From contig NZ_CANKXG010000002.1 in assembly GCF_947487575.1 (NCBI RefSeq), positions 167,179 to 231,178 of the forward strand: a DNA stretch of 64,000 nt, given 5' to 3'. Positions 7,485-45,814 of this stretch are shown here, one piece after another (the first letter of the stretch is position 1; each line of letters begins with the position of its first letter). Made by a program: the position numbers and the translations under genes. This DNA comes from an uncultured Algibacter sp. (GTDB taxonomy: Bacteria > Bacteroidota > Bacteroidia > Flavobacteriales > Flavobacteriaceae). The notes beneath the pieces were generated by a model. It saw nothing but the letters and a program-made list of their open reading frames with translations, was not told the origin of the DNA and made no database searches.

Positions 7485-8225
7485 TTGGAAAATAGCAACC
7501 CCATATCGCCCGAACTTTTAGATACTATAGAACGGTATTTAAAAAACACCATGAATACAAACGAACGTGAAGTATTCGAGGAAAAATTAAAAGACAATAC
7601 AACACTTCAGCAACAGGTAAAAGATATTGAAACTATACTTTTTGGTGTTAGGAAAGCCATTTTTAAAAATAAAGCAAACCATTTTCATAAAACGCTAATA
7701 AATAAAGATTCAGAAATTAAAGCAGACAAGAAAGTATTTAATTTAAATTTTAAACACATGTCTATTGCCGCATCTGTAGTCTTATTATTGGGAAGTGTTT
7801 GGTTTTTTAATCAAAAAAAATCAAATAGTACCTTATTTGATAAATACTATATTGAAGATAGAGGCTTAGAAACAAACATGGGAGAAACAAACAATTATAC
7901 TTTTGATGATGCCATGGTAGATTATAAGCACGGTAAATATGATAAAGCCATTGAAAAATGGAATCTTCTCCAAAAAAACCAACCAAAAAATGACACCTTA
8001 AATTACTTTTTAGGTGTTGCGCATTTAGCAAATAAAGATGCTGACAAAGCCATTAAATTTTTAGAAACTACAGCAAATAACAGTGAAAGCACTTTCTTAA
8101 ACGAAGCCAATTTTTATTTAGGTCTTTCCTATTTAAAACTAGATAAAACGGATTTGGCCATTGAAACTTTACAAAAAAGTAATTCTGAAAGAAGCAAAGC
8201 GGTAATTGAAGCATTAAAAGAGTAA
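7485..8225 (+). CDS. Single-TM protein with helical N-terminal (anti-sigma-like) domain and C-terminal TPRs
   Basis: IERYL....EREVFEEKL N-domain, TM SIAASVVLLLGSVWFF, TPR-like YFLGVAHL / FYLGLSYL; TTG start directly after the ECF sigma gene. Confidence 0.7.
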   Translation: MENSNPISPELLDTIERYLKNTMNTNEREVFEEKLKDNTTLQQQVKDIETILFGVRKAIFKNKANHFHKTLINKDSEIKADKKVFNLNFKHMSIAASVVLLLGSVWFFNQKKSNSTLFDKYYIEDRGLETNMGETNNYTFDDAMVDYKHGKYDKAIEKWNLLQKNQPKNDTLNYFLGVAHLANKDADKAIKFLETTANNSESTFLNEANFYLGLSYLKLDKTDLAIETLQKSNSERSKAVIEALKE

Positions 8226-32906: not shown

Positions 32907-33146
32907 ATGTTAAAAAAACTACTCATAGCACCATTTTTATTTTTGATTAAAGTGTATCAAACCTTGATATCACCTTTAACACCAGCTACTTGTAGATACA
33001 ATCCAACTTGTTCTCATTACTCCAAAGAAGCTTTAAAAAAACATGGTTTATTTAAAGGTGGTTGGTTGGCTGTGAAACGTATTTTTAGTTGCCACCCTTG
33101 GGGAGGTTCAGGTTACGACCCAGTACCAGATAAGGATGACAACTAA
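32907..33146 (+). CDS. yidD: Membrane protein insertion efficiency factor
   Basis: [27 protein letters not shown]; true start likely 32907 because the ATG at 32895 lies inside a REP. Confidence 0.9.
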
Positions 33147-33338
33147 AAAATGCCATCGCGCAAGCTCGTATGTTCGTTAAAAATGTACACCTTACATTTT
33201 ATTAATACCCTATTGTCTTAAAAGGTTCCGATTACTACCCAACAACTTTAAAACTTATTAATAAATTCTATTTTAATTTATGAAAGAAATTTATTATTAA
33301 ATTCGTAAGTTTACTTTCTAACCCAATCATTTTTAAAA

Positions 33339-34670
33339 ATGAAACCTACTTTTAAATCCCCCCTTCTTCTTGTATTATTTTTTATTTCTTGCTCAAATGA
33401 AGACCATACTACAGAACCTGAAAATAAGGAAGCAACTGAAGAATTTGTGATTTTTTCCAACGAAGATTATCCTGAGATTCCAAAAGAAGAAATCTTAATA
33501 TCAAATCAAAGGTTTTTAGGTGGTACAAATGCTAGTGATTCTAATGACGGATCGCAAAATGCACCATGGGCAAGTTTTAATAAAGCACTACAAGAACTAT
33601 GTGCATCTAAAACTTGGTACTGTTTAAATATAGCATCAGATATAGCGGTTAACGATTTTATTGACACTAAATTCTATGGTGGTGGTCCTGGAACTCCTTC
33701 ACAATATGTTTATATACGAAGTTTACCTTCACTATCCATACCAGTCACCATAACTTTAAACGCAAGAGTAGAAATAGATGGACAACAAAACTGGTTATGG
33801 TATGGTTTTAACATGAAAGGTTCTGAAGGCATTAATTTAGGTCAAGATTTAAGAACAAATCACCACACTATTAGGAATATTAGTGGTGTAATGACTGGAG
33901 AGGGTGGAGATAACCACGGCTTTTTTCAAGCTCTTAACAGTAATGCAGACTATTTTGGTGTATTTAATTGTTATTTCAAGGGACCTGGAATAGATGGTGT
34001 TCATGGAAACACATCTAATATCATTGCTTTTGGAATTTCGCATATGCGGATAGAAAATAATATTTTTACAAACGCTCCTAGCCCCTTCTACTTCAAACAT
34101 TCGAATAAAGCAGAACGAGGAGCTGCAGATATACATTTTAAAAATAATTTTCAGCAAGAAACGTCAATAGGTGAATCGTGTTTTTTTGCAGGAAGAGCAC
34201 AAGGAGGCATTTTTGAAATTTCAAATAATATTTTCGCAAGCAATGTTAAGATATCTAACGGTGGGGGTTCTGAACAACCAGAAGGGCATTTTATCTCTCA
34301 TAATACGTTTTTATCAAACTTAATCTTAGATAAAGGCAATGACCCTGTAATTAATGCTACTTTAGAGAATAACATCATTATTGGAGATTTAGAATTACTT
34401 AGATATAGTAACCATATAAATACCAATATTTCTGACTATGAATTAATAGGAGGACGTATTTATTATCAGTCTAATAATTACACACTATCTCAATGGCAAG
34501 AAAATGCTGTTCCAAGTGGTCAAGATAAAAATTCAGTTACTGGTTTGCCTGTATTTAATGGAAGTATTAACCCAATAGATTTTAAGCTAGCAAGTAATTC
34601 TCTTGGTAAAAATTTAGCAAGTGAAGGTGGAGATATAGGTGCTAATGTAGATTATGTTGGCACTAAATAA
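33339..34670 (+). CDS. Lipoprotein with right-handed parallel beta-helix (pectin-lyase-like fold)
   Basis: Lipobox FIS-C; SDSNDGSQNAPWAS motif; repeated I.NN.F strands; C-terminal GGDIGA. Confidence 0.6.
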   Translation: MKPTFKSPLLLVLFFISCSNEDHTTEPENKEATEEFVIFSNEDYPEIPKEEILISNQRFLGGTNASDSNDGSQNAPWASFNKALQELCASKTWYCLNIASDIAVNDFIDTKFYGGGPGTPSQYVYIRSLPSLSIPVTITLNARVEIDGQQNWLWYGFNMKGSEGINLGQDLRTNHHTIRNISGVMTGEGGDNHGFFQALNSNADYFGVFNCYFKGPGIDGVHGNTSNIIAFGISHMRIENNIFTNAPSPFYFKHSNKAERGAADIHFKNNFQQETSIGESCFFAGRAQGGIFEISNNIFASNVKISNGGGSEQPEGHFISHNTFLSNLILDKGNDPVINATLENNIIIGDLELLRYSNHINTNISDYELIGGRIYYQSNNYTLSQWQENAVPSGQDKNSVTGLPVFNGSINPIDFKLASNSLGKNLASEGGDIGANVDYVGTK

Positions 34671-38974: not shown

Positions 38975-39289
38975 ATGTATTTCTATTATGTCTATATCTT
39001 AAAATGTTCTGATAATTCTTATTACACGGGAATAACCAATGACTTAGATAAACGAATTAAAGAACATACCTACGGAAAATATAGAGATTGTTACACTTAT
39101 AAGCGAAGACCAATAGAAGTTAAGTTTTACGAAACTTTTAATGATGTATTGCAAGCCATATATTTTGAAAAGAAAATAAAAAGATGGACACGTGCAAAGA
39201 AAAAAGCCTTAATTGATGGGGATTTTGATATGCTTCAAATATTGGCTGAGTGCAGAAATGCAACTCATTATAAATATAGAGGTAAATAA
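38975..39289 (+). CDS. Small GIY-YIG nuclease (UPF0213/YhbQ-like)
   Basis: YVYILKC...YYTGITNDL..R..EH, A...EKKIKRW.R.KK.ALI. Confidence 0.9.
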   Translation: MYFYYVYILKCSDNSYYTGITNDLDKRIKEHTYGKYRDCYTYKRRPIEVKFYETFNDVLQAIYFEKKIKRWTRAKKKALIDGDFDMLQILAECRNATHYKYRGK

Positions 39290-39352
39290 GCACATCGAAT
39301 TAGCTTGACATAATCTAAATTTAAAAACTACCATATTCAAAAGCTTTAACTG

Positions 39353-39425
39353 TGTCATGTTGAGCGCAGTCGAAACACATTAAAAAACGGAATTATCATG
39401 CACTTCGACTACGCTCAGTGTGACA
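39353..39425. repeat. Inverted REP doublet (TGAGCGCAGTCGAA class)
   Basis: TGTCATGTTGAGCGCAGTCGAAAC (39353-39376) and CTTCGACTACGCTCAGTGTGACA (39403-39425). Confidence 0.75.
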
Positions 39426-39458: not shown

Positions 39459-40691
39459 ATGAATTCAACTACTCTATTTTACATCATCATCGCCATTATT
39501 GTTATTAATTTTATAGTTGATAAAGTACTTGACGCGTTAAATGCAAAACATTTTAATGACACACTACCTGCAGAATTACAAGATGTTTATGATGATGCTG
39601 AATATAAAAAATCGCAAAACTATAAGGCTACAAATTATAAATTTGGGCTACTAACCTCAACGTTTTCACTTCTTTTAACTTTAGGGTTTTTATGGTTTGA
39701 TGGTTTTGAGTTTGTAGATAACATAGCTCGAAATTATAGTGAAAACCCAATTATTTTAGCACTCATTTTCTTTGGAATTATTATGATTGGTAGTGATATT
39801 TTAACCACACCATTTTCCTACTACAGCACCTTTGTTATTGAAGAAAAATTTGGGTTTAATAAAACCACAGTAAAAACTTTCTTTTTAGATAAAATTAAAG
39901 GTTGGTTAATGATGGCTATTGTTGGCGGTGGTATTCTGGCGTTGATTATTTGGTTTTATCAAGCTACAGGGAAACACTTTTGGTTATATGCTTGGGCTCT
40001 AGTGGCTATTTTTACGTTGTTTATGAATATGTTTTATTCCAAGCTTATTGTGCCGCTTTTTAATAAACAAACACCTTTAGAAGAGGGCACCTTGCGCGAT
40101 AAAATTTCGACATACGCAGAAACGGTTGGATTTAAATTAGATAAGATTTTTGTTATTGATGGCTCTAAACGAAGCACCAAAGCCAATGCCTATTTTTCTG
40201 GGTTTGGTAGTGAAAAACGCGTAACGCTTTATGACACTCTAATTAACGATTTAGAAGATGAAGAGATTGTTGCTGTTCTGGCACACGAAGTTGGACATTA
40301 CAAGAAAAAACACATTATTTTTAATTTGTTTGCTTCTATTTTATTGACGGGTTTGACGCTTTATATTTTATCGTTGTTTATTTCGAATCCGATGTTATCT
40401 CAGGCTTTGGGTGTTGAAACTCCTAGTTTTCATATTGGGCTAATTGCTTTTGGGCTACTCTACTCGCCTATTTCTGAAATTACTGGGTTGATTATGAATG
40501 TATTTTCTAGGAAGTTTGAATACCAAGCGGATGATTATGCTAAAAACACGTATAAGAGCGAACCACTTATTACATCACTAAAAAAACTTTCTAAAAATAG
40601 TTTAAGTAATTTAACGCCACATCCTGCTTATGTATTTATGCATTATTCGCATCCTACACTTTTGGAACGGATTGGGAATTTGAGGAAATAA
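39459..40691 (+). CDS. M48 family Zn metalloprotease (Ste24-like)
   Basis: DGSKRSTKANAYF, AVLAHEVGH, EYQAD, YSHPTL. Confidence 0.93.
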   Translation: MNSTTLFYIIIAIIVINFIVDKVLDALNAKHFNDTLPAELQDVYDDAEYKKSQNYKATNYKFGLLTSTFSLLLTLGFLWFDGFEFVDNIARNYSENPIILALIFFGIIMIGSDILTTPFSYYSTFVIEEKFGFNKTTVKTFFLDKIKGWLMMAIVGGGILALIIWFYQATGKHFWLYAWALVAIFTLFMNMFYSKLIVPLFNKQTPLEEGTLRDKISTYAETVGFKLDKIFVIDGSKRSTKANAYFSGFGSEKRVTLYDTLINDLEDEEIVAVLAHEVGHYKKKHIIFNLFASILLTGLTLYILSLFISNPMLSQALGVETPSFHIGLIAFGLLYSPISEITGLIMNVFSRKFEYQADDYAKNTYKSEPLITSLKKLSKNSLSNLTPHPAYVFMHYSHPTLLERIGNLRK

Positions 40692-41009
40692 GATCATTGC
40701 GAGGCACGATATAATCTCAGAAAATTTTATATCAACAAGTTGTAAAATGATTTTGATTTACTTTATTTGTTTAAAAGATTTCGGCTTGCTTCATTTAACG
40801 TTGAGGTTAAAGTATCTTCTACTGAACTTATTTTAGTATTAAAAGGACACAAATCTACGGGCCATTGCTTGCAATTACAGCTTCGAACAACACAATTTAT
40901 TACAAGTAATTTCTTTTCTCATTTTTGAATCATAACTACATATCTAATAATATTTAGTATCTTAACTTAATCATTGAAATTTTCAAATCCAATGCAAATC
41001 GCAAAATAT

Positions 41010-41897
41010 ATGAAGAGAGTACTCCTTTTAATTCTAATACTATCTTGTCTATCAATGGGAACAAAAGCTGAAAAAGCACTCCCCATCTTAGGAATAGCCC
41101 ATGTGGCGTTTCAAGTATCAAGTTTAGAGCAATCGCGTGCATTCTATACGGCTTTTTATGGATTTGAATTTGCATTTGCTGCGTATGAAGATCAAGAGGC
41201 TTGGTATTTAAAAATAAACGACGACCAGTTTGTGAAGTTAGTCTCAAAACCCGAGGGGACAGATGACAACCGGTTAGTTGAAATCGCATTTCAAGTTTCA
41301 GATATCGAGACTACTATTGCTATGCTCAAAGACAGAGGGCTCAACCCAACGCCTGTAGAAAAAAATTCCGATGGTACCTTAGCGAGTGTTCTAGTAGATC
41401 CAGACGGACATAACCTTAAGTTTGTTGAATACACATCTAATTCCAAGCAAACACTAGCTAAAGGCAAGCATTTAGGGTCTAGGCGAGTTTCCGATCGTTT
41501 GCTGCATGTAGGCATCACTATTACTGATGAAAAGGCGGCCAACACATTGTATCGAGATGCTTTAGGTTTTAAAGAAATTTGGCGCGGATCGCGTAAAGAT
41601 GGTGGTCCAGATGCTTGGGTGAATATGCAGTTACCGGGAGATAGCGGTGACTACGTTGAGTACATTCTTATAAACGATATAAAACTGAGTAGAAGGCAAA
41701 TGGGCACAATGCATCATATGTGCCTTTTAACTGATGATATTCAAAAAGCGCATCGCGATATGTTATTTAATGCCTTACCTGATCTTGAACGTTACGAACC
41801 TTTGGTTGCCCGTAACAACCGCTGGGTGTGCAATGTGCACGATCTCGATGGTACGCGTTGTGAATTAATGGAATCAAAAGAAGCTGTAACTAAATGA
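41010..41897 (+). CDS. Exported two-domain VOC/glyoxalase-family protein
   Basis: Signal peptide from Met at 41010; HVAFQV...FY...GF, DPDG..L.FVE, HVGI, HMCLL, DLDGTR.ELME. Confidence 0.8.
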   Translation: MKRVLLLILILSCLSMGTKAEKALPILGIAHVAFQVSSLEQSRAFYTAFYGFEFAFAAYEDQEAWYLKINDDQFVKLVSKPEGTDDNRLVEIAFQVSDIETTIAMLKDRGLNPTPVEKNSDGTLASVLVDPDGHNLKFVEYTSNSKQTLAKGKHLGSRRVSDRLLHVGITITDEKAANTLYRDALGFKEIWRGSRKDGGPDAWVNMQLPGDSGDYVEYILINDIKLSRRQMGTMHHMCLLTDDIQKAHRDMLFNALPDLERYEPLVARNNRWVCNVHDLDGTRCELMESKEAVTK

Positions 41898-43186
41898 TAA
41901 ATAAGATAATACCACTTCGTTTCTCTCTGCTGAAAATTCTATTTTTAGTGATGAGTCCATTTGTTCTCTCGCAAGCTGGTTTTGCACAAGACGAGTCAGC
42001 CACGGTTTTAGCTGTGAAAGAGCATCCTCATTTCTTTGGTGCAAGACGCGGAGCCTTACCAATTGTGAAACAAGACATTGCGCGAGGTGACACCTCACTT
42101 ATGCCAGCCTATAACGCTCTACTTATCACAGCCAATAAAGCCTTAGCGACTGAACCTCCAACGGTAACTGATAAAAAACGGCATCCTGTTAGCGGAAATC
42201 TGAATGACTATTACACTCAGGCTCCTTACCTCTGGCCCGATCCTTCAAAGCCAGACGGTTTACCATACCTACCAAAGGACGGTATCATCAATCCGGAATC
42301 TCGAAACCCCGATTTTGCGGACTATTCACGCGGTCAAGAAATTGGCCACTTAGTCGAATCGCTTGCCCTCGCATATTACCTCACGGGTAAAGAATCGTAC
42401 GCTGCACATGCAGCTCGATGCCTTCGTGTTTGGTTTATCGATTCTGCTACGCGGATGAACCCACACCTTAAGTATGCACAAGCTGTACCTGGTAGAAACC
42501 AAGGACGTTATATTGGAATGATTGAAGCAGGTGGCGTAGTACAAGCAGTGGATGCTGCTGGTCTTTTAGATGGATCTAAACATTGGAGCAAAAACGACCG
42601 AGCAGCACTAGATATTTGGATAACGAACTTTCTGGATTGGTTTATAAATAGCGAGTATGGTAAAGAAGAAATTCAGATGCGACAGAACCATGGCACTATG
42701 TTCGATGTAAGAGTCGTGCGCTTAGCGCTAGCTTTGGGTAAATACGAACTAGCACGCGAAAGGCTAGAATTGGTAAAAGAGAACCGTATTGCTCGCCAAA
42801 TAGAACCTGATGGTGCCCAACCCATGGAGCTGCGACGCACCAAGTCTTTTAACTACTCCGAAATGAATTTAACGGGGCTTACTGAACTAGCGACACTTGG
42901 AGAGTGGGTTGGAGTAAATTTGTGGTCCTACGAGACAGCAGATGGCCGGAGCATAAGGCGAGCGCTGGAGTTCCTTAGACCTTATGTTGAAGAAGTACCC
43001 GAAGGTTCTCCGCCTAGGGTTTGGCACTACAAACAGGTTGTTCCGTTTCTGCCAGAAATTCTCGCTCCAGCATTTCGTATGGCTAGCATTGGATATCAAG
43101 ATGAGGCATACGAAGCTATTGCTTCTCAGTTCTCTGATTTCAAAGCATCAAGCTTTCAGTTAACACATCCGAAAGGCTCGTTTTAA
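41894..43186 (+). CDS. Alginate-lyase family protein (PF05426-like)
   Basis: Signal peptide; DYYTQAPYLWP, DG..NPE, MNPHL.YAQ..PG, NHGT, I.PDG.QP.EL.RT.SF.YS; ATGA overlap with the VOC gene. Confidence 0.85.
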   Translation: MINKIIPLRFSLLKILFLVMSPFVLSQAGFAQDESATVLAVKEHPHFFGARRGALPIVKQDIARGDTSLMPAYNALLITANKALATEPPTVTDKKRHPVSGNLNDYYTQAPYLWPDPSKPDGLPYLPKDGIINPESRNPDFADYSRGQEIGHLVESLALAYYLTGKESYAAHAARCLRVWFIDSATRMNPHLKYAQAVPGRNQGRYIGMIEAGGVVQAVDAAGLLDGSKHWSKNDRAALDIWITNFLDWFINSEYGKEEIQMRQNHGTMFDVRVVRLALALGKYELARERLELVKENRIARQIEPDGAQPMELRRTKSFNYSEMNLTGLTELATLGEWVGVNLWSYETADGRSIRRALEFLRPYVEEVPEGSPPRVWHYKQVVPFLPEILAPAFRMASIGYQDEAYEAIASQFSDFKASSFQLTHPKGSF

Positions 43187-43396
43187 GGAATTTAGTAGCT
43201 CATTCTGCTTATGTATTTATGCATTATTCGCATCCTACACTTTTGGAACGGATTAGGAATCTGAGGAAATAACGTTTTTTTAAGGCACACCCAGTTCCGA
43301 GTACTTTTCGGGAAAGCAATCTCAAGAATTATCTCCTGCAAAGGCGCTAAATCGTAAAGCTAATACTTGATTTTGTAAAAATTTTCATCTACCTTC

Positions 43397-43446
43397 GTTT
43401 AACGTCGGATATAAAACATTAAAACGTTGTCATATCCGCATAAGTT
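43397..43446 (+). mobile_element. Short attC-like site with overlapping promoter-like TTG-N20-TACCTTCG (43367-43397)
   Basis: GTTTAAC-GTCGG-ATAT...ATAT-CCGCATAA-GTT; same AAC-N5-ATAT / ATAT-N8-GTT spacing as the site at 14585-14716. Confidence 0.55.
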
Positions 43447-43566
43447 GGAGTGAATTCCTGCGTCATTCACTCCAACGTCCCGCGAATAAGATTTGGAGCG
43501 ACTGCCAAAAGGCACTCACACCAACAACGAATAAAATTCATTGAAACAAATCTTATTCGCGGGACG
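43445..43566 (+). mobile_element. Gene-less cassette-like unit (122 bp)
   Basis: TTGGAG...CTCCAAC complementary boxes (12-bp hairpin 43444-43476), then 22-bp perfect inverted repeat (43474-43495/43547-43568) ending G|TTAAACGAA. Confidence 0.5.
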
Positions 43567-43652
43567 TTAAACGAAACTTCAAAATTACACAAAAAAGCAT
43601 TAAACAGATTAGCACAGTCGTACCTCCTTGGCAATGACGTTGGCAGATACTT

Positions 43653-43801
43653 GCGTTAGGGATTGCAGCGGCATCCTTTTTTTAAAACACCCAAAAATTT
43701 TATTTAGAATTAGGTTTAGGCAGATTGCCACGTCGAAAACTCCTCGCAATGACGTAAAAAAAGATATAGCGTAAAGCCCGACCCTTGTGGTAACGCCCAA
43801 A
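43653..43801. repeat. Flavo-1-like repeat, copy D (inverted), with nested REP at 43722-43754
   Basis: GCGTTAGGGATTGCAGCGGCATCC...AAAGCCCGACCCTTGTGGTAACGCCCAAA. Confidence 0.75.
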
Positions 43802-43999: not shown

Positions 44000-45814
44000 A
44001 TGAGCACATTCCAAGATTTAGGTCTTAATGACGACCTATTACAAGCCATTACAGATTTAGGATTTGAAAAACCTAGTGAAGTACAAGAAAAAGCAATCCC
44101 AATTTTATTAGAGTCTGAAACCGATTTAGTGGCTCTGGCCCAAACGGGTACGGGTAAAACCGCCGCATTTGGTTTCCCGATGTTAGAGAAAATTGATGTA
44201 GCTAGTAGAACCACGCAGGGTTTAATTTTATCGCCTACCAGAGAGCTTTGTTTACAGATTACCAACGAGATGAAATTGTATGGTAAATATTGTAAGGGGC
44301 TTAATGTGGTAGCGGTTTACGGTGGATCGAGTATTACAGACCAAGCACGTGAGATTAAACGTGGTGCACAAATAATTGTGGCGACTCCAGGCCGTATGAA
44401 AGATATGATTAACAGACGTTTGGTTGATATTTCTAAAATCCAGTATTCGGTTTTAGATGAGGCTGATGAGATGCTTAACATGGGCTTTAAAGAGGATATT
44501 ACTGATATTTTATCGCACACACCAGAGGATAAAAACACGTGGTTATTTTCTGCAACAATGCCTCGTGAGGTGTCTAGAATTGCTAAAAACTTTATGCATA
44601 ACCCACAGGAAATTACTGTTGGAAATAAGAATGAGAGTACAAGTAATGTATCTCATGAATATTATTTAGTAAATGCTAGAGATAGATACCAAGCATTAAA
44701 ACGTTTAAGTGATGCTAATCCGGATATATTTTCGGTTATTTTTTGTAGAACAAAACGTGATACACAAAAGGTTGCTGAAAAACTGATTGAAGATGGATAT
44801 AGTGCTGGGGCTTTACATGGGGATTTAAGTCAAAATCAACGTGATATCGTGATGAAATCGTTTAGAAACAAACAAATACAAATGCTAGTAGCTACCGATG
44901 TGGCGGCACGTGGTATTGATGTTGATGATATTACACACGTAATAAATTACCAATTACCTGACGAGATTGAAACCTATACGCACCGTTCTGGTAGAACAGG
45001 ACGTGCTGGAAAAACGGGAGTTTCAATGGTTATTGTTTCTAAAAGTGAAGTGCGTAAAATTAAAAGTATTGAGCGCATTATTAAACGCCAATTTGATAAA
45101 AAAGAAATTCCTGATGGTGCTGATATTTGCGAAGTGCAATTGATGTCTTTGGCTAATAAAATACACAACACAGAAATTAATCATGAAATTGATAAGCATT
45201 TGGCTAATATTAATGAGTTATTTGCTGATACGGATAAAGATGAATTGATTAAAAAATTCTTCTCGGTTGAGTTTACTCGTTTTTACAATTACTACAACAA
45301 ATCTAAAAACCTTAATGTAGCAGAAGGTTCTTATGATAGTAGTGAAGGCAGAAGCAGAGGTGGTAAATCTACACGCTACTTTATTAACGTTGGTGGTAAA
45401 GATGGATTTGATTGGATGAAGTTAAAAGACTTCTTGAAAGAGCAATTAGACCTTGGTAGAGATGATGTCTTTAAAGTGGAAACTAAAGACAGCTTCTCGT
45501 TTTTTAATACAGAAAACGAACTTAAAGAGAAAGTATTAGCCCATTTTACCGACTTTAAACATGAAGGTCGTTTTGTAAATGTTGAAGTTTCAGAAAACCG
45601 TGGTGGAGGACGACGTGGAGATAGACGCGGCGGCGGTGGAAGACGTGATGGTGGAAAAAGACGTGACGACAGACGTGGTGGCGGTAAACGCGATGACAGA
45701 AAAGAAAGCTCTGGAAACAGAGGTGATAGACGCAGAAGTGATAGTGGCTCTAAACCTAGACGTTCTAATTCTAGCGATTTTGGAAGTTCTAGACCTAGAC
45801 GTTCTAGACGATAA
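44000..45814 (+). CDS. DEAD-box RNA helicase (DeaD/CsdA-like) with DbpA-type domain and R/G-rich tail
   Basis: AQTGTGKT, PTRELC, DEADEM, SAT, ARGID, HRSGRTGRAG. Confidence 0.96.
   Translation: MSTFQDLGLNDDLLQAITDLGFEKPSEVQEKAIPILLESETDLVALAQTGTGKTAAFGFPMLEKIDVASRTTQGLILSPTRELCLQITNEMKLYGKYCKGLNVVAVYGGSSITDQAREIKRGAQIIVATPGRMKDMINRRLVDISKIQYSVLDEADEMLNMGFKEDITDILSHTPEDKNTWLFSATMPREVSRIAKNFMHNPQEITVGNKNESTSNVSHEYYLVNARDRYQALKRLSDANPDIFSVIFCRTKRDTQKVAEKLIEDGYSAGALHGDLSQNQRDIVMKSFRNKQIQMLVATDVAARGIDVDDITHVINYQLPDEIETYTHRSGRTGRAGKTGVSMVIVSKSEVRKIKSIERIIKRQFDKKEIPDGADICEVQLMSLANKIHNTEINHEIDKHLANINELFADTDKDELIKKFFSVEFTRFYNYYNKSKNLNVAEGSYDSSEGRSRGGKSTRYFINVGGKDGFDWMKLKDFLKEQLDLGRDDVFKVETKDSFSFFNTENELKEKVLAHFTDFKHEGRFVNVEVSENRGGGRRGDRRGGGGRRDGGKRRDDRRGGGKRDDRKESSGNRGDRRRSDSGSKPRRSNSSDFGSSRPRRSRR

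Follow-up and report, generated by a model that had tools for sequence, protein, structure and literature searches.

Within the window, a stretch of 64,000 nucleotides from an uncultured Algibacter sp. (RefSeq assembly GCF_947487575.1, contig NZ_CANKXG010000002.1, positions 167,179 to 231,178), an intact gene for an M48 metalloprotease is separated from a gene for a DEAD-box RNA helicase by an islet that encodes a VOC-fold protein and a PL38-like alginate lyase, two genes putatively for the degradation of seaweed polysaccharide, and is followed by a second copy of the M48 gene end. We favor, with moderate confidence, an explanation in which the two genes would be a cassette captured in a docking repeat ("socket") behind M48 and the 72-bp repeat would be the scar of an illegitimate microhomology join between two alleles of this locus. 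The features are as follows, all on the forward strand, with the two sockets and the spacers that precede them denoted A (left) and B (right):

39459-40691 (+), M48 (CAAX-prenyl-protease-like) metalloprotease gene, intact, 410 aa (Pfam PF16491, PF01435)
40620-40691 (+), left copy of the repeat, the last 72 nt of M48
40692-40758 (+), spacer A, about 66 nt from the M48 stop to socket A, weakly collinear with spacer B (AGGCAC, AATCTCA)
40759-40866 (+), socket A, a diverged long-loop docking repeat that ends in ATT directly before the cassette
40867-43203 (+), 3'-truncated gene cassette
40867-40893 (+), cassette-start sequence GCTTGCAATTACAGCTTCGAACAACAC, a 20/27 match to the sequence that follows a socket in Hyunsoonleella jejuensis
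about 40925-41009 (+), putative promoter region of the cassette
41010-41897 (+), VOC-fold gene, 295 aa, predicted exported, two-domain VOC/glyoxalase fold (PF00903, PF13669)
41894-43186 (+), PL38-like alginate-lyase-family gene, 430 aa, signal peptide (PF05426)
43187-43203 (+), conserved 17-nt cassette tail (GGAAT..GCTCAT)
43201-43272 (+), right copy of the repeat, a 68-72-nt non-coding fragment of the M48 3' end including the stop codon
43273-43356 (+), spacer B, native-type M48 downstream sequence
43357-43446 (+), socket B, a canonical docking repeat whose hairpin is intact, with GTT at the insertion point (nhmmer E 8e-25)
43447-43565 (+), gene-less cassette of about 120 nt with 22-nt perfect inverted repeats, GTT at 43444-43446 and 43566-43568
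43566-43575 (+), socket right half GTTAAACGAA, directly after the ~120-nt cassette
43648-43787 (+), Flavo-1 RNA motif (Rfam RF01705, 48.3 bits versus a gathering score of 42)
44000-45814 (+), DEAD-box RNA helicase gene (Pfam), the conserved right flank, neighbor of M48 in 13 of 16 Algibacter species

The repeat was identified with a repeat finder as the sole strong direct repeat in the 38-46 kb region (40601-40707 versus 43182-43288; 107 nt, 85% identity), and it is present in two copies in the whole 3.52-Mb source genome (G000; C2, C4, C6 and C8 below are its contigs). A first-pass annotation, made from the letters of this DNA alone, had pointed out that the last 24 codons of M48 recur at 43201-43272; pairwise alignment with column counts (69/72 identical positions in the core) and the translations (HPAY...IGNLRK and stop on the left, HSAY...IRNLRK and stop on the right) agree with this, with the refinement that the part derived from M48 begins at 43201-43205 and is accordingly 68-72 nt long. 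The right copy starts exactly where the tail of the lyase module stops (..AGTAGCTCAT/TCTGCTTATG versus ..ACGCCACAT/CCTGCTTATG in M48; here and below, a slash marks the junction). The joint between the cassette tail and M48 lies at CAT(T), 43201-43204, where the tail reads ..AGTAGCTCAT/TCTGCTT and M48 reads ..CGCCACAT/CCTGCTT, CAT and possibly more being common to both. Two non-homologous sequences are thus joined at a short microhomology, as in homology-facilitated illegitimate recombination (HFIR); 3-4 nt of it are certain, and with a lost tail like that of H. jejuensis it could reach up to about 10 nt. The difference between P and S in the translations probably marks the junction rather than a mutation: the right copy contains a junction T (an apparent C>T) and one real T>C, both of them also present in the right copy of A. 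aquimarinus (see below), and one G>A change private to the source genome.

Because the 17-nt tail is conserved across genera, the apparent similarity to M48 upstream of 43201 belongs to the lyase module; an M48 origin of 43182-43200 (in frame "VLRNLVA", 13/20) was considered and dropped given the conservation of this stretch behind the lyase stop in genera with no M48 gene nearby. A tRNA or other RNA as the target was likewise set aside, since Rfam finds only the Flavo-1 motif in this region. The possibility raised with the first-pass annotation that the repeat is an assembly artefact is very unlikely, given that the independent assembly of Algibacter aquimarinus JCM 18287 (G010), the closest match to the islet and the one from which the genus is named here, has the same structure with both junctions and the second M48 fragment.

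At 96-97% identity, the M48 ends of the two copies differ at 2-3 of 68-72 positions, yet beyond the stop codons the copies are nearly unalignable (9/16 identical positions, then a 23-nt indel, then scattered matches). Among Algibacter species, the M48 ends differ at 5-11 of 72 positions and the spacers behind them are equally unalignable. Such a sharp break of identity at the stop codon indicates that purifying selection preserved each end within a working gene, which places them in two lineages before they were joined; given, in addition, that sockets A and B are of different sub-variants, we attribute them to two alleles from separate lineages. Alternatively, the M48 end and its downstream region might have been duplicated in tandem and in place, after which the copies would have diverged and the cassette would have entered between them. 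This would explain why the repeat is direct and why a socket-type repeat lies comparably far behind each copy (66 and 94 nt). However, near-identical ends followed by unalignable sequence are not expected from duplication in place: a neutral fragment of 96-97% identity beside spacers of about 50% identity is incompatible with a common date, and identity breaks exactly at the stop codon. Moreover, the tandem M48 paralogue, complete or decaying in place, that had been proposed as a possible refutation of an insertion is found in no relative, a second and partial match being present only in the source genome and A. aquimarinus. This origin of the repeat therefore appears very improbable.

Sockets are docking repeats of about 100 nt, of which the source genome has about 32 copies. 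Socket A has BLAST matches to two other genomic copies (E 1e-4 and 3.5e-4) and aligns over its full length with 32 copies (MAFFT), the closest being the long-loop copies at C2:309920 and C4:75722; its loop is about 24 nt longer, which sets it apart as a sub-variant, and its hairpin no longer folds, so that it is probably decayed. The spacer in front of it is 100% identical in Algibacter genome G008 and in A. aquimarinus. Socket A ends ..GGGCCATT/GCTTGCAATTAC, with the junction between positions 40866 and 40867, and is followed by the cassette start, the same start that follows a socket in H. jejuensis. The module accordingly occupies the position of a cassette immediately after the RTT crossover (R being G or A) of a docking site, with the caveat that this docking site is diverged. 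The left boundary of the foreign DNA is therefore an RTT within a repeat about 175 nt downstream of the M48 stop, and not the M48 stop itself. Elsewhere in the genus, a socket is found 50-120 nt after the M48 stop in G011, G015, G009, G013 and G023. The ~120-nt element in socket B has about 10 genomic copies at 96% identity or more. A tyrosine recombinase gene (PF00589 and PF13495) at C6:249200-250381 encodes the candidate enzyme of the socket system, and a one-directional array of open reading frames (ORFs) of more than 35 kb extends behind it to the end of the contig (C6:249200-285768). The ORFs of this array carry repeated 3' elements of about 130 nt, and the array is presumed to be the cassette store of the system.

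Only two real ORFs, those for the VOC-fold protein and the lyase, lie between the repeats. They overlap by ATGA and are always translationally coupled; conservation places the true start of the VOC gene at the ATG at 41010. The lyase is similar over nearly its full length to PDB 3nfv (E 1.5e-74) and to the BoPL38 chains 8bdq and 9fht (E 8e-60), PDB 9FHT-9FHV being alginate-lyase complexes of BoPL38, and it is classified as PL38-like on the basis of this full-length similarity to characterized or solved members. In agreement with the first-pass annotation, no recombinase is encoded here: the ORFs of 50 aa or more between the repeats have no Phage_integrase or resolvase match in Pfam. The higher GC content that it had noticed by eye was also borne out: the module (40925-43204) has 42.9% GC compared with 32.2% for the genome and 32.7% for M48, and the profile climbs from 30-34% to 40-48% over about 41.0-43.2 kb. 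The stretch from 40692 to 40924 is native-like, at 29.6%.

The module has relatives well outside the genus. At 77-83% nucleotide identity, homologues are present in 13 genomes of other genera (loci L038-L050), including Hyunsoonleella (4 species), Seonamhaeicola (2), A. onchidii, Maribacter, a Flavobacterium sp., Wenyingzhuangia and two metagenome-assembled genomes (MAGs) of Saprospiraceae; homology sets in at about 40925, some 85 nt ahead of the VOC start, and extends to 17-18 nt past the lyase stop (43203-43204). The M48 gene is never near the module in these 13 genomes. Because the module is GC-richer than its flanks in each of them, by 4-12 points, it is foreign to all 13. The next-closest homologues of the lyase (45-49% amino acid identity) are encoded in MAGs of Verrucomicrobiota, a hint that the module may have originated outside Bacteroidota. 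Three Hyunsoonleella species (H. rubra, H. flava and H. aquatilis; L038, L039, L041) contain a pair of VOC-lyase modules with about 5.7 kb between them; the second has an intact VOC gene and a lyase gene in fragments with internal deletions, which parallels the condition of G008 described below.

The most informative copy is that of H. jejuensis, where a socket (..CAGTT/AGTAGCAATTACC..) and a socket right half (..GGT/AAACGAACCTCC) bracket the module. The preceding socket is canonical and ends ..CTCAGTT/AGTAGCAATTACCACTTCAAATAACAC, the sequence behind the crossover being identical at 20 of 27 positions to the cassette start in the window; the cassette continues for about 240 nt past the lyase stop and ends ..AAAAGGT/AAACGAACCTCC. 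Over its last 150 nt, it shares 82% identity with the 3' end of a small, unrelated cassette in the source genome (C8:208885-209036), which terminates ..GAGACC/GTTAAACGAACCTC. Both of these cassettes thus have their own 3' recombination element followed by GTTAAACGAA, and the window islet has neither. From these alignments, the VOC-lyase module can be recognized as a complete cassette in H. jejuensis, of which the window copy keeps the head and lacks the whole 3' recombination element. At least 15 sockets were found in H. jejuensis; in the comparison for an empty site, its sister species (G050) lacks the whole socket. The Flavo-1 motif stands after the socket right half both in the window and in H. 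jejuensis (L043, about 7585-7690), and a single, larger repeated unit may comprise socket, cassette and Flavo-1.

To return to Algibacter, the comparison covered 16 species, three of which lack the synteny of M48 and the helicase gene, with M48 orthologues 88-98% identical in 15 congeners; the intervals between the two genes were inspected in the 13 species in which they are neighbors. These intervals range from 0.3 kb (G006, G015, G001) to 6 kb. Across the genus, the VOC gene is found only in the source genome, A. aquimarinus and, in part, G008, and the lyase gene and second M48 fragment only in the first two; lyases that cluster at ≥90% identity come only from these same two genomes, and a 31-nt probe for spacer and socket A gave 0 matches in metagenome contigs. 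What changes between species is the occupancy of the socket, aligned in eight genomes, at one exact RTT site. It is empty in A. aquimarinus (..CCGCATAAGTT/AAACGAAAC) and in G015 (..ATT/AAACGAA); in the source genome it contains the ~120-nt element (122 nt; GTT/GGAGTGAATTCC..), which is precisely absent in A. aquimarinus; in G008 an ORF of 364 aa with a type IX secretion system sorting tail (GTT/ATATTTAATTG..); in G009 a membrane-protein ORF of 162 aa (ATT/GTGCTTAATTTAGC..; L036); in G013 ORFs of 161 and 579 aa, the latter with a weak MmeI-methylase-like match (GTT/GGGAGTC..; L136); and in G023 a GH29 alpha-L-fucosidase (L142, 1313-3250). Wherever the junction can be aligned (G000, G008, G009, G010, G013, G015), the insert begins at the same RTT, and GTTAAACGAA follows it in G000, G008, G009, G013 and G023; no match to GTTAAACGAA was found in G011. 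Presence and absence at the exact site are seen for socket B, and the alignments identify the socket behind M48 as a true insertion hotspot. The interval in G012 comprises about 6 kb with an amidohydrolase-family protein (PF01979) and three further ORFs that, judged by size and N-terminal sequence only, are candidate histidine-utilization genes and a LysR-type regulator gene.

These comparisons bear directly on the proposal, made in the first-pass annotation, of an integrase-less remnant of an integrative island. Under this scenario, an element with its own tyrosine or serine recombinase would have entered the 3' end of M48, supplied a substitute for the gene end and lost its integrase afterwards. 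Direct repeats derived from the target, a reconstituted gene, the foreign GC content of the cargo and empty sites in relatives are all as expected from such an element. However, no ORF of at least 50 aa in these 2.5 kb encodes an integrase or a remnant of one, and the interval is fully accounted for by socket A, the module and its tail. The larger islands with an integrase that had been predicted at the same position in relatives are also absent from the intervals of the 13 syntenic species, where cassettes, candidate hut genes or a protease gene were found, although sites without the insert, the other half of that prediction, do exist. The functional left boundary is the RTT site behind M48, the right junction cuts the cassette 17 nt past the lyase stop where the complete form in H. 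jejuensis runs for about 240 nt, the junction is unlike the G/TTAAAC core of the local cassette system, the spread that is observed proceeds by homologous recombination in M48 and the helicase gene, and in 13 other genomes the module is accompanied by neither M48 nor the repeats. Hence, the 72-bp duplication is most likely not an att site; different histories of the two copies, which the first-pass annotation had also suggested from their divergence, are retained without the att interpretation attached to them, and of its two suggestions, decayed island or homology-directed capture, only the second is close to the explanation favored here. We assign the decayed island a very slight probability.

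The spread of the islet is documented by its nearest relatives. A. aquimarinus carries the same islet at 99% identity, within a 4.6-kb block (about 39.8-44.4 kb, repeat included) in which the two genomes are 98-100% identical; elsewhere over 21-62 kb of the window they are 72-86% identical, on a background of about 80%. The break-points of this tract fall inside M48 and inside the helicase gene, where identity to A. aquimarinus drops from 98% to 87% at about 44400. G008 has a mosaic tract of 92-99% over 37-47 kb on a background of about 80%. The flanking genes M48 and DEAD thus demonstrably act as recombination arms today. Given the contrast between a block of 98-100% identity and a background of about 80%, the islet, scar included, is best described from these alignments as having recently crossed species boundaries by homologous recombination in the conserved flanks, a route for which no integrase is needed. 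In G008, seven lyase codons remain (MINKVIA and stop), followed by unrelated DNA with an opposite-strand ORF of 281 aa and then by socket B; because these codons remain, the loss of the lyase in this genome is read as secondary. Another short tract, at about 33000-34000, is 98.9% identical to G008 on a background of about 80-88%, which suggests a further recent patch of inter-species recombination.

Taken together, the repeat is most likely a scar of sloppy recombination and not an att site. We infer the following order of events. A horizontally acquired cassette for the VOC-fold protein and the PL38-like lyase would have been captured in the hairpin socket just downstream of an Algibacter M48 gene, this socket being one of the ~32 docking sites of an integron-like system whose tyrosine recombinase would be encoded elsewhere in the genome. 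The product would be allele A: M48, 66 nt, socket A and the VOC-lyase cassette. A second allele, B, would consist of M48, 94 nt, socket B and, further on, the helicase gene. A later join at the microhomology CAT/CTGCTT would have connected the cassette, 17 nt past the lyase stop, to a position 68 to 72 nt before the end of the stop codon of the allele-B M48. HFIR appears to be the simplest route, and the most economical single event: an incoming fragment of allele B would have been anchored by homology on the helicase side while its left end was joined illegitimately within the cassette tail. Such a join would delete the 3' recombination site of the cassette and the right half of socket A, leaving the cassette immobilized, a functional socket B behind it and the 72-bp M48 fragment as a passenger scar. 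Between Algibacter species, the locus now moves by ordinary homologous recombination in its M48 and DEAD flanks.

Several observations weigh against this scenario. Intact allele A, with socket A and a complete cassette behind M48, was found in no genome, so that the precursor is hypothetical. G008 has socket A and VOC and no M48 fragment, and the fragment could postdate the spread of allele A. Socket A was assigned from BLAST E-values of about 1e-4 and the multiple alignment, its profile hidden Markov model score being 5.4 bits (E 0.61), which ranks first among 500 shuffles, marginally. The certain microhomology at the junction is short, HFIR would presuppose a natural route of DNA uptake in Algibacter, and 2-3 differences in 68-72 nt are few for alleles with unalignable spacers.

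This last point could also be explained by gene conversion or by a crossover inside the repeat, the latter being the essence of a Campbell-type integration. Here, a circle composed of the last ~72 nt of M48, spacer A, socket A, the VOC-lyase module and the 17-nt tail would have recombined once, through RecA, with the resident M48 3' end, duplicating the 72 bp and leaving both copies chimeric. Direct repeats of the homologous segment around the insert are the classic product of such an event, in which the small number of differing positions between the copies is as expected, and the cassette system does produce circles. The price is two rare events, namely an illegitimate circularization that creates the joint of tail and M48 and a recombination on only about 70 nt; furthermore, an allele-A donor is still required and the truncation of the cassette is explained no better. 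We regard this route as unlikely, while granting it an appreciable chance.

Two further possibilities involve a recombinase that acts in trans. Integron integrases can use secondary sites, and an integron-like enzyme might have used a non-canonical site at the M48 3' end so that the M48 end, socket A and the cassette were moved as a whole. The genome does contain a recombinase and many sockets, such use of secondary sites has precedent among integron integrases, and the A/TTC junction loosely resembles an RTT crossover; however, both the M48 site (CACAT/CCTGC) and the junction lack the G/TTAAAC core of each verified boundary of a socket or cassette, and the junction has no hairpin. The probability of this event is small. 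A little less improbable, though still doubtful, is that the M48 end, socket A and the cassette together represent a new kind of mobilizable module, moved either in trans by the integron-like recombinase or through the 72-bp repeat by RecA, that brings a spare end of the target gene by which M48 is spared. If true, this would amount to "socket hopping", in which new docking sites are seeded behind conserved genes.

With respect to known systems, the capture by a socket, as opposed to the scar, is most readily compared with integrons, whose gene cassettes also occur singly in the genome, at sites distant from the integrase. As in integrons, the docking site holds different cassettes in sister species at one exact G/A-TT crossover and is promoter-proximal, the cassettes being promoter-less or self-promoted; a structured 3' element of about 150 nt is followed by GTTAAAC, which fits GTTRRRY; and a tyrosine recombinase, with a role that is predicted, lies beside a long one-directional cassette array. 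This recombinase is recognized by PF00589 and PF13495. Unlike integrons, the system has about 32 dispersed docking sites instead of one attI, and its host belongs to Flavobacteriaceae; a literature search on integrons in this family turned up nothing relevant. The cassette itself differs from a typical integron cassette in having two genes with a putative promoter of their own, and the window islet, without a 3' site, is functionally no longer a cassette.

HFIR is reportedly a process of naturally transformable bacteria, its description being attributed to de Vries and Wackernagel (2002). The likeness is that one end of the exchange would lie in long homology (the helicase gene or M48) and the other lies at a microhomology of 3-10 nt, with foreign DNA gained and resident DNA deleted. 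The case inferred here from sequence differs from those on record in that the two partners are apparently alleles of one locus and the product bears a short duplicated gene end. The term HFIR is used as in PMC6382021. Compared with islands in the 3' ends of tRNA, tmRNA or protein genes, the locus has repeats from the target 3' end, an intact target and foreign GC content; unlike such islands, it lacks an integrase, conserved island ends and a site-specific core, and its right boundary is a truncation within a cassette. The cargo lyase can be compared with BoPL38 of Bacteroides ovatus, a PL38 alginate/glucuronan lyase (bioRxiv 10.1101/2024.12.11.627697; PDB 9FHT-9FHV), which it resembles, by sequence assignment, in its PF05426 domain, its signal peptide and its near full-length match at 430 aa, the difference being that its gene is coupled through the ATGA overlap to that of an exported two-domain VOC-fold protein.

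The locus is a moderately interesting variant of known processes, and its main value is as a worked example of the capture, fixation and cross-species spread of a polysaccharide-lyase module. Apart from conjugative elements and whole polysaccharide-utilization loci, little is understood about the movement of carbohydrate-active enzyme genes among marine Flavobacteriaceae, and this locus suggests that three layers may act on one lyase module: capture by an integron-like socket, the same socket of another species containing the GH29 fucosidase; fixation, through an illegitimate joint that removes the recombination site of the cassette; and sweeps, through recombination in conserved flanking genes, across the boundaries of species at about 80% average nucleotide identity. 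For annotation, the case advises caution, in that a duplicated gene end beside foreign DNA is insufficient to call an att site.

On the other side of M48, a stand-alone GIY-YIG nuclease gene is located at 38975-39289, between a SpoU methylase gene and M48. It is present in the source genome, G008 and G011, which are 99.5-100% identical over 39000-39400 with flanks of 89-95%, and absent in A. aquimarinus, G015 and G009, in which a few bases separate the methylase gene from the start of M48; by this pattern, the nuclease gene looks recently mobile.

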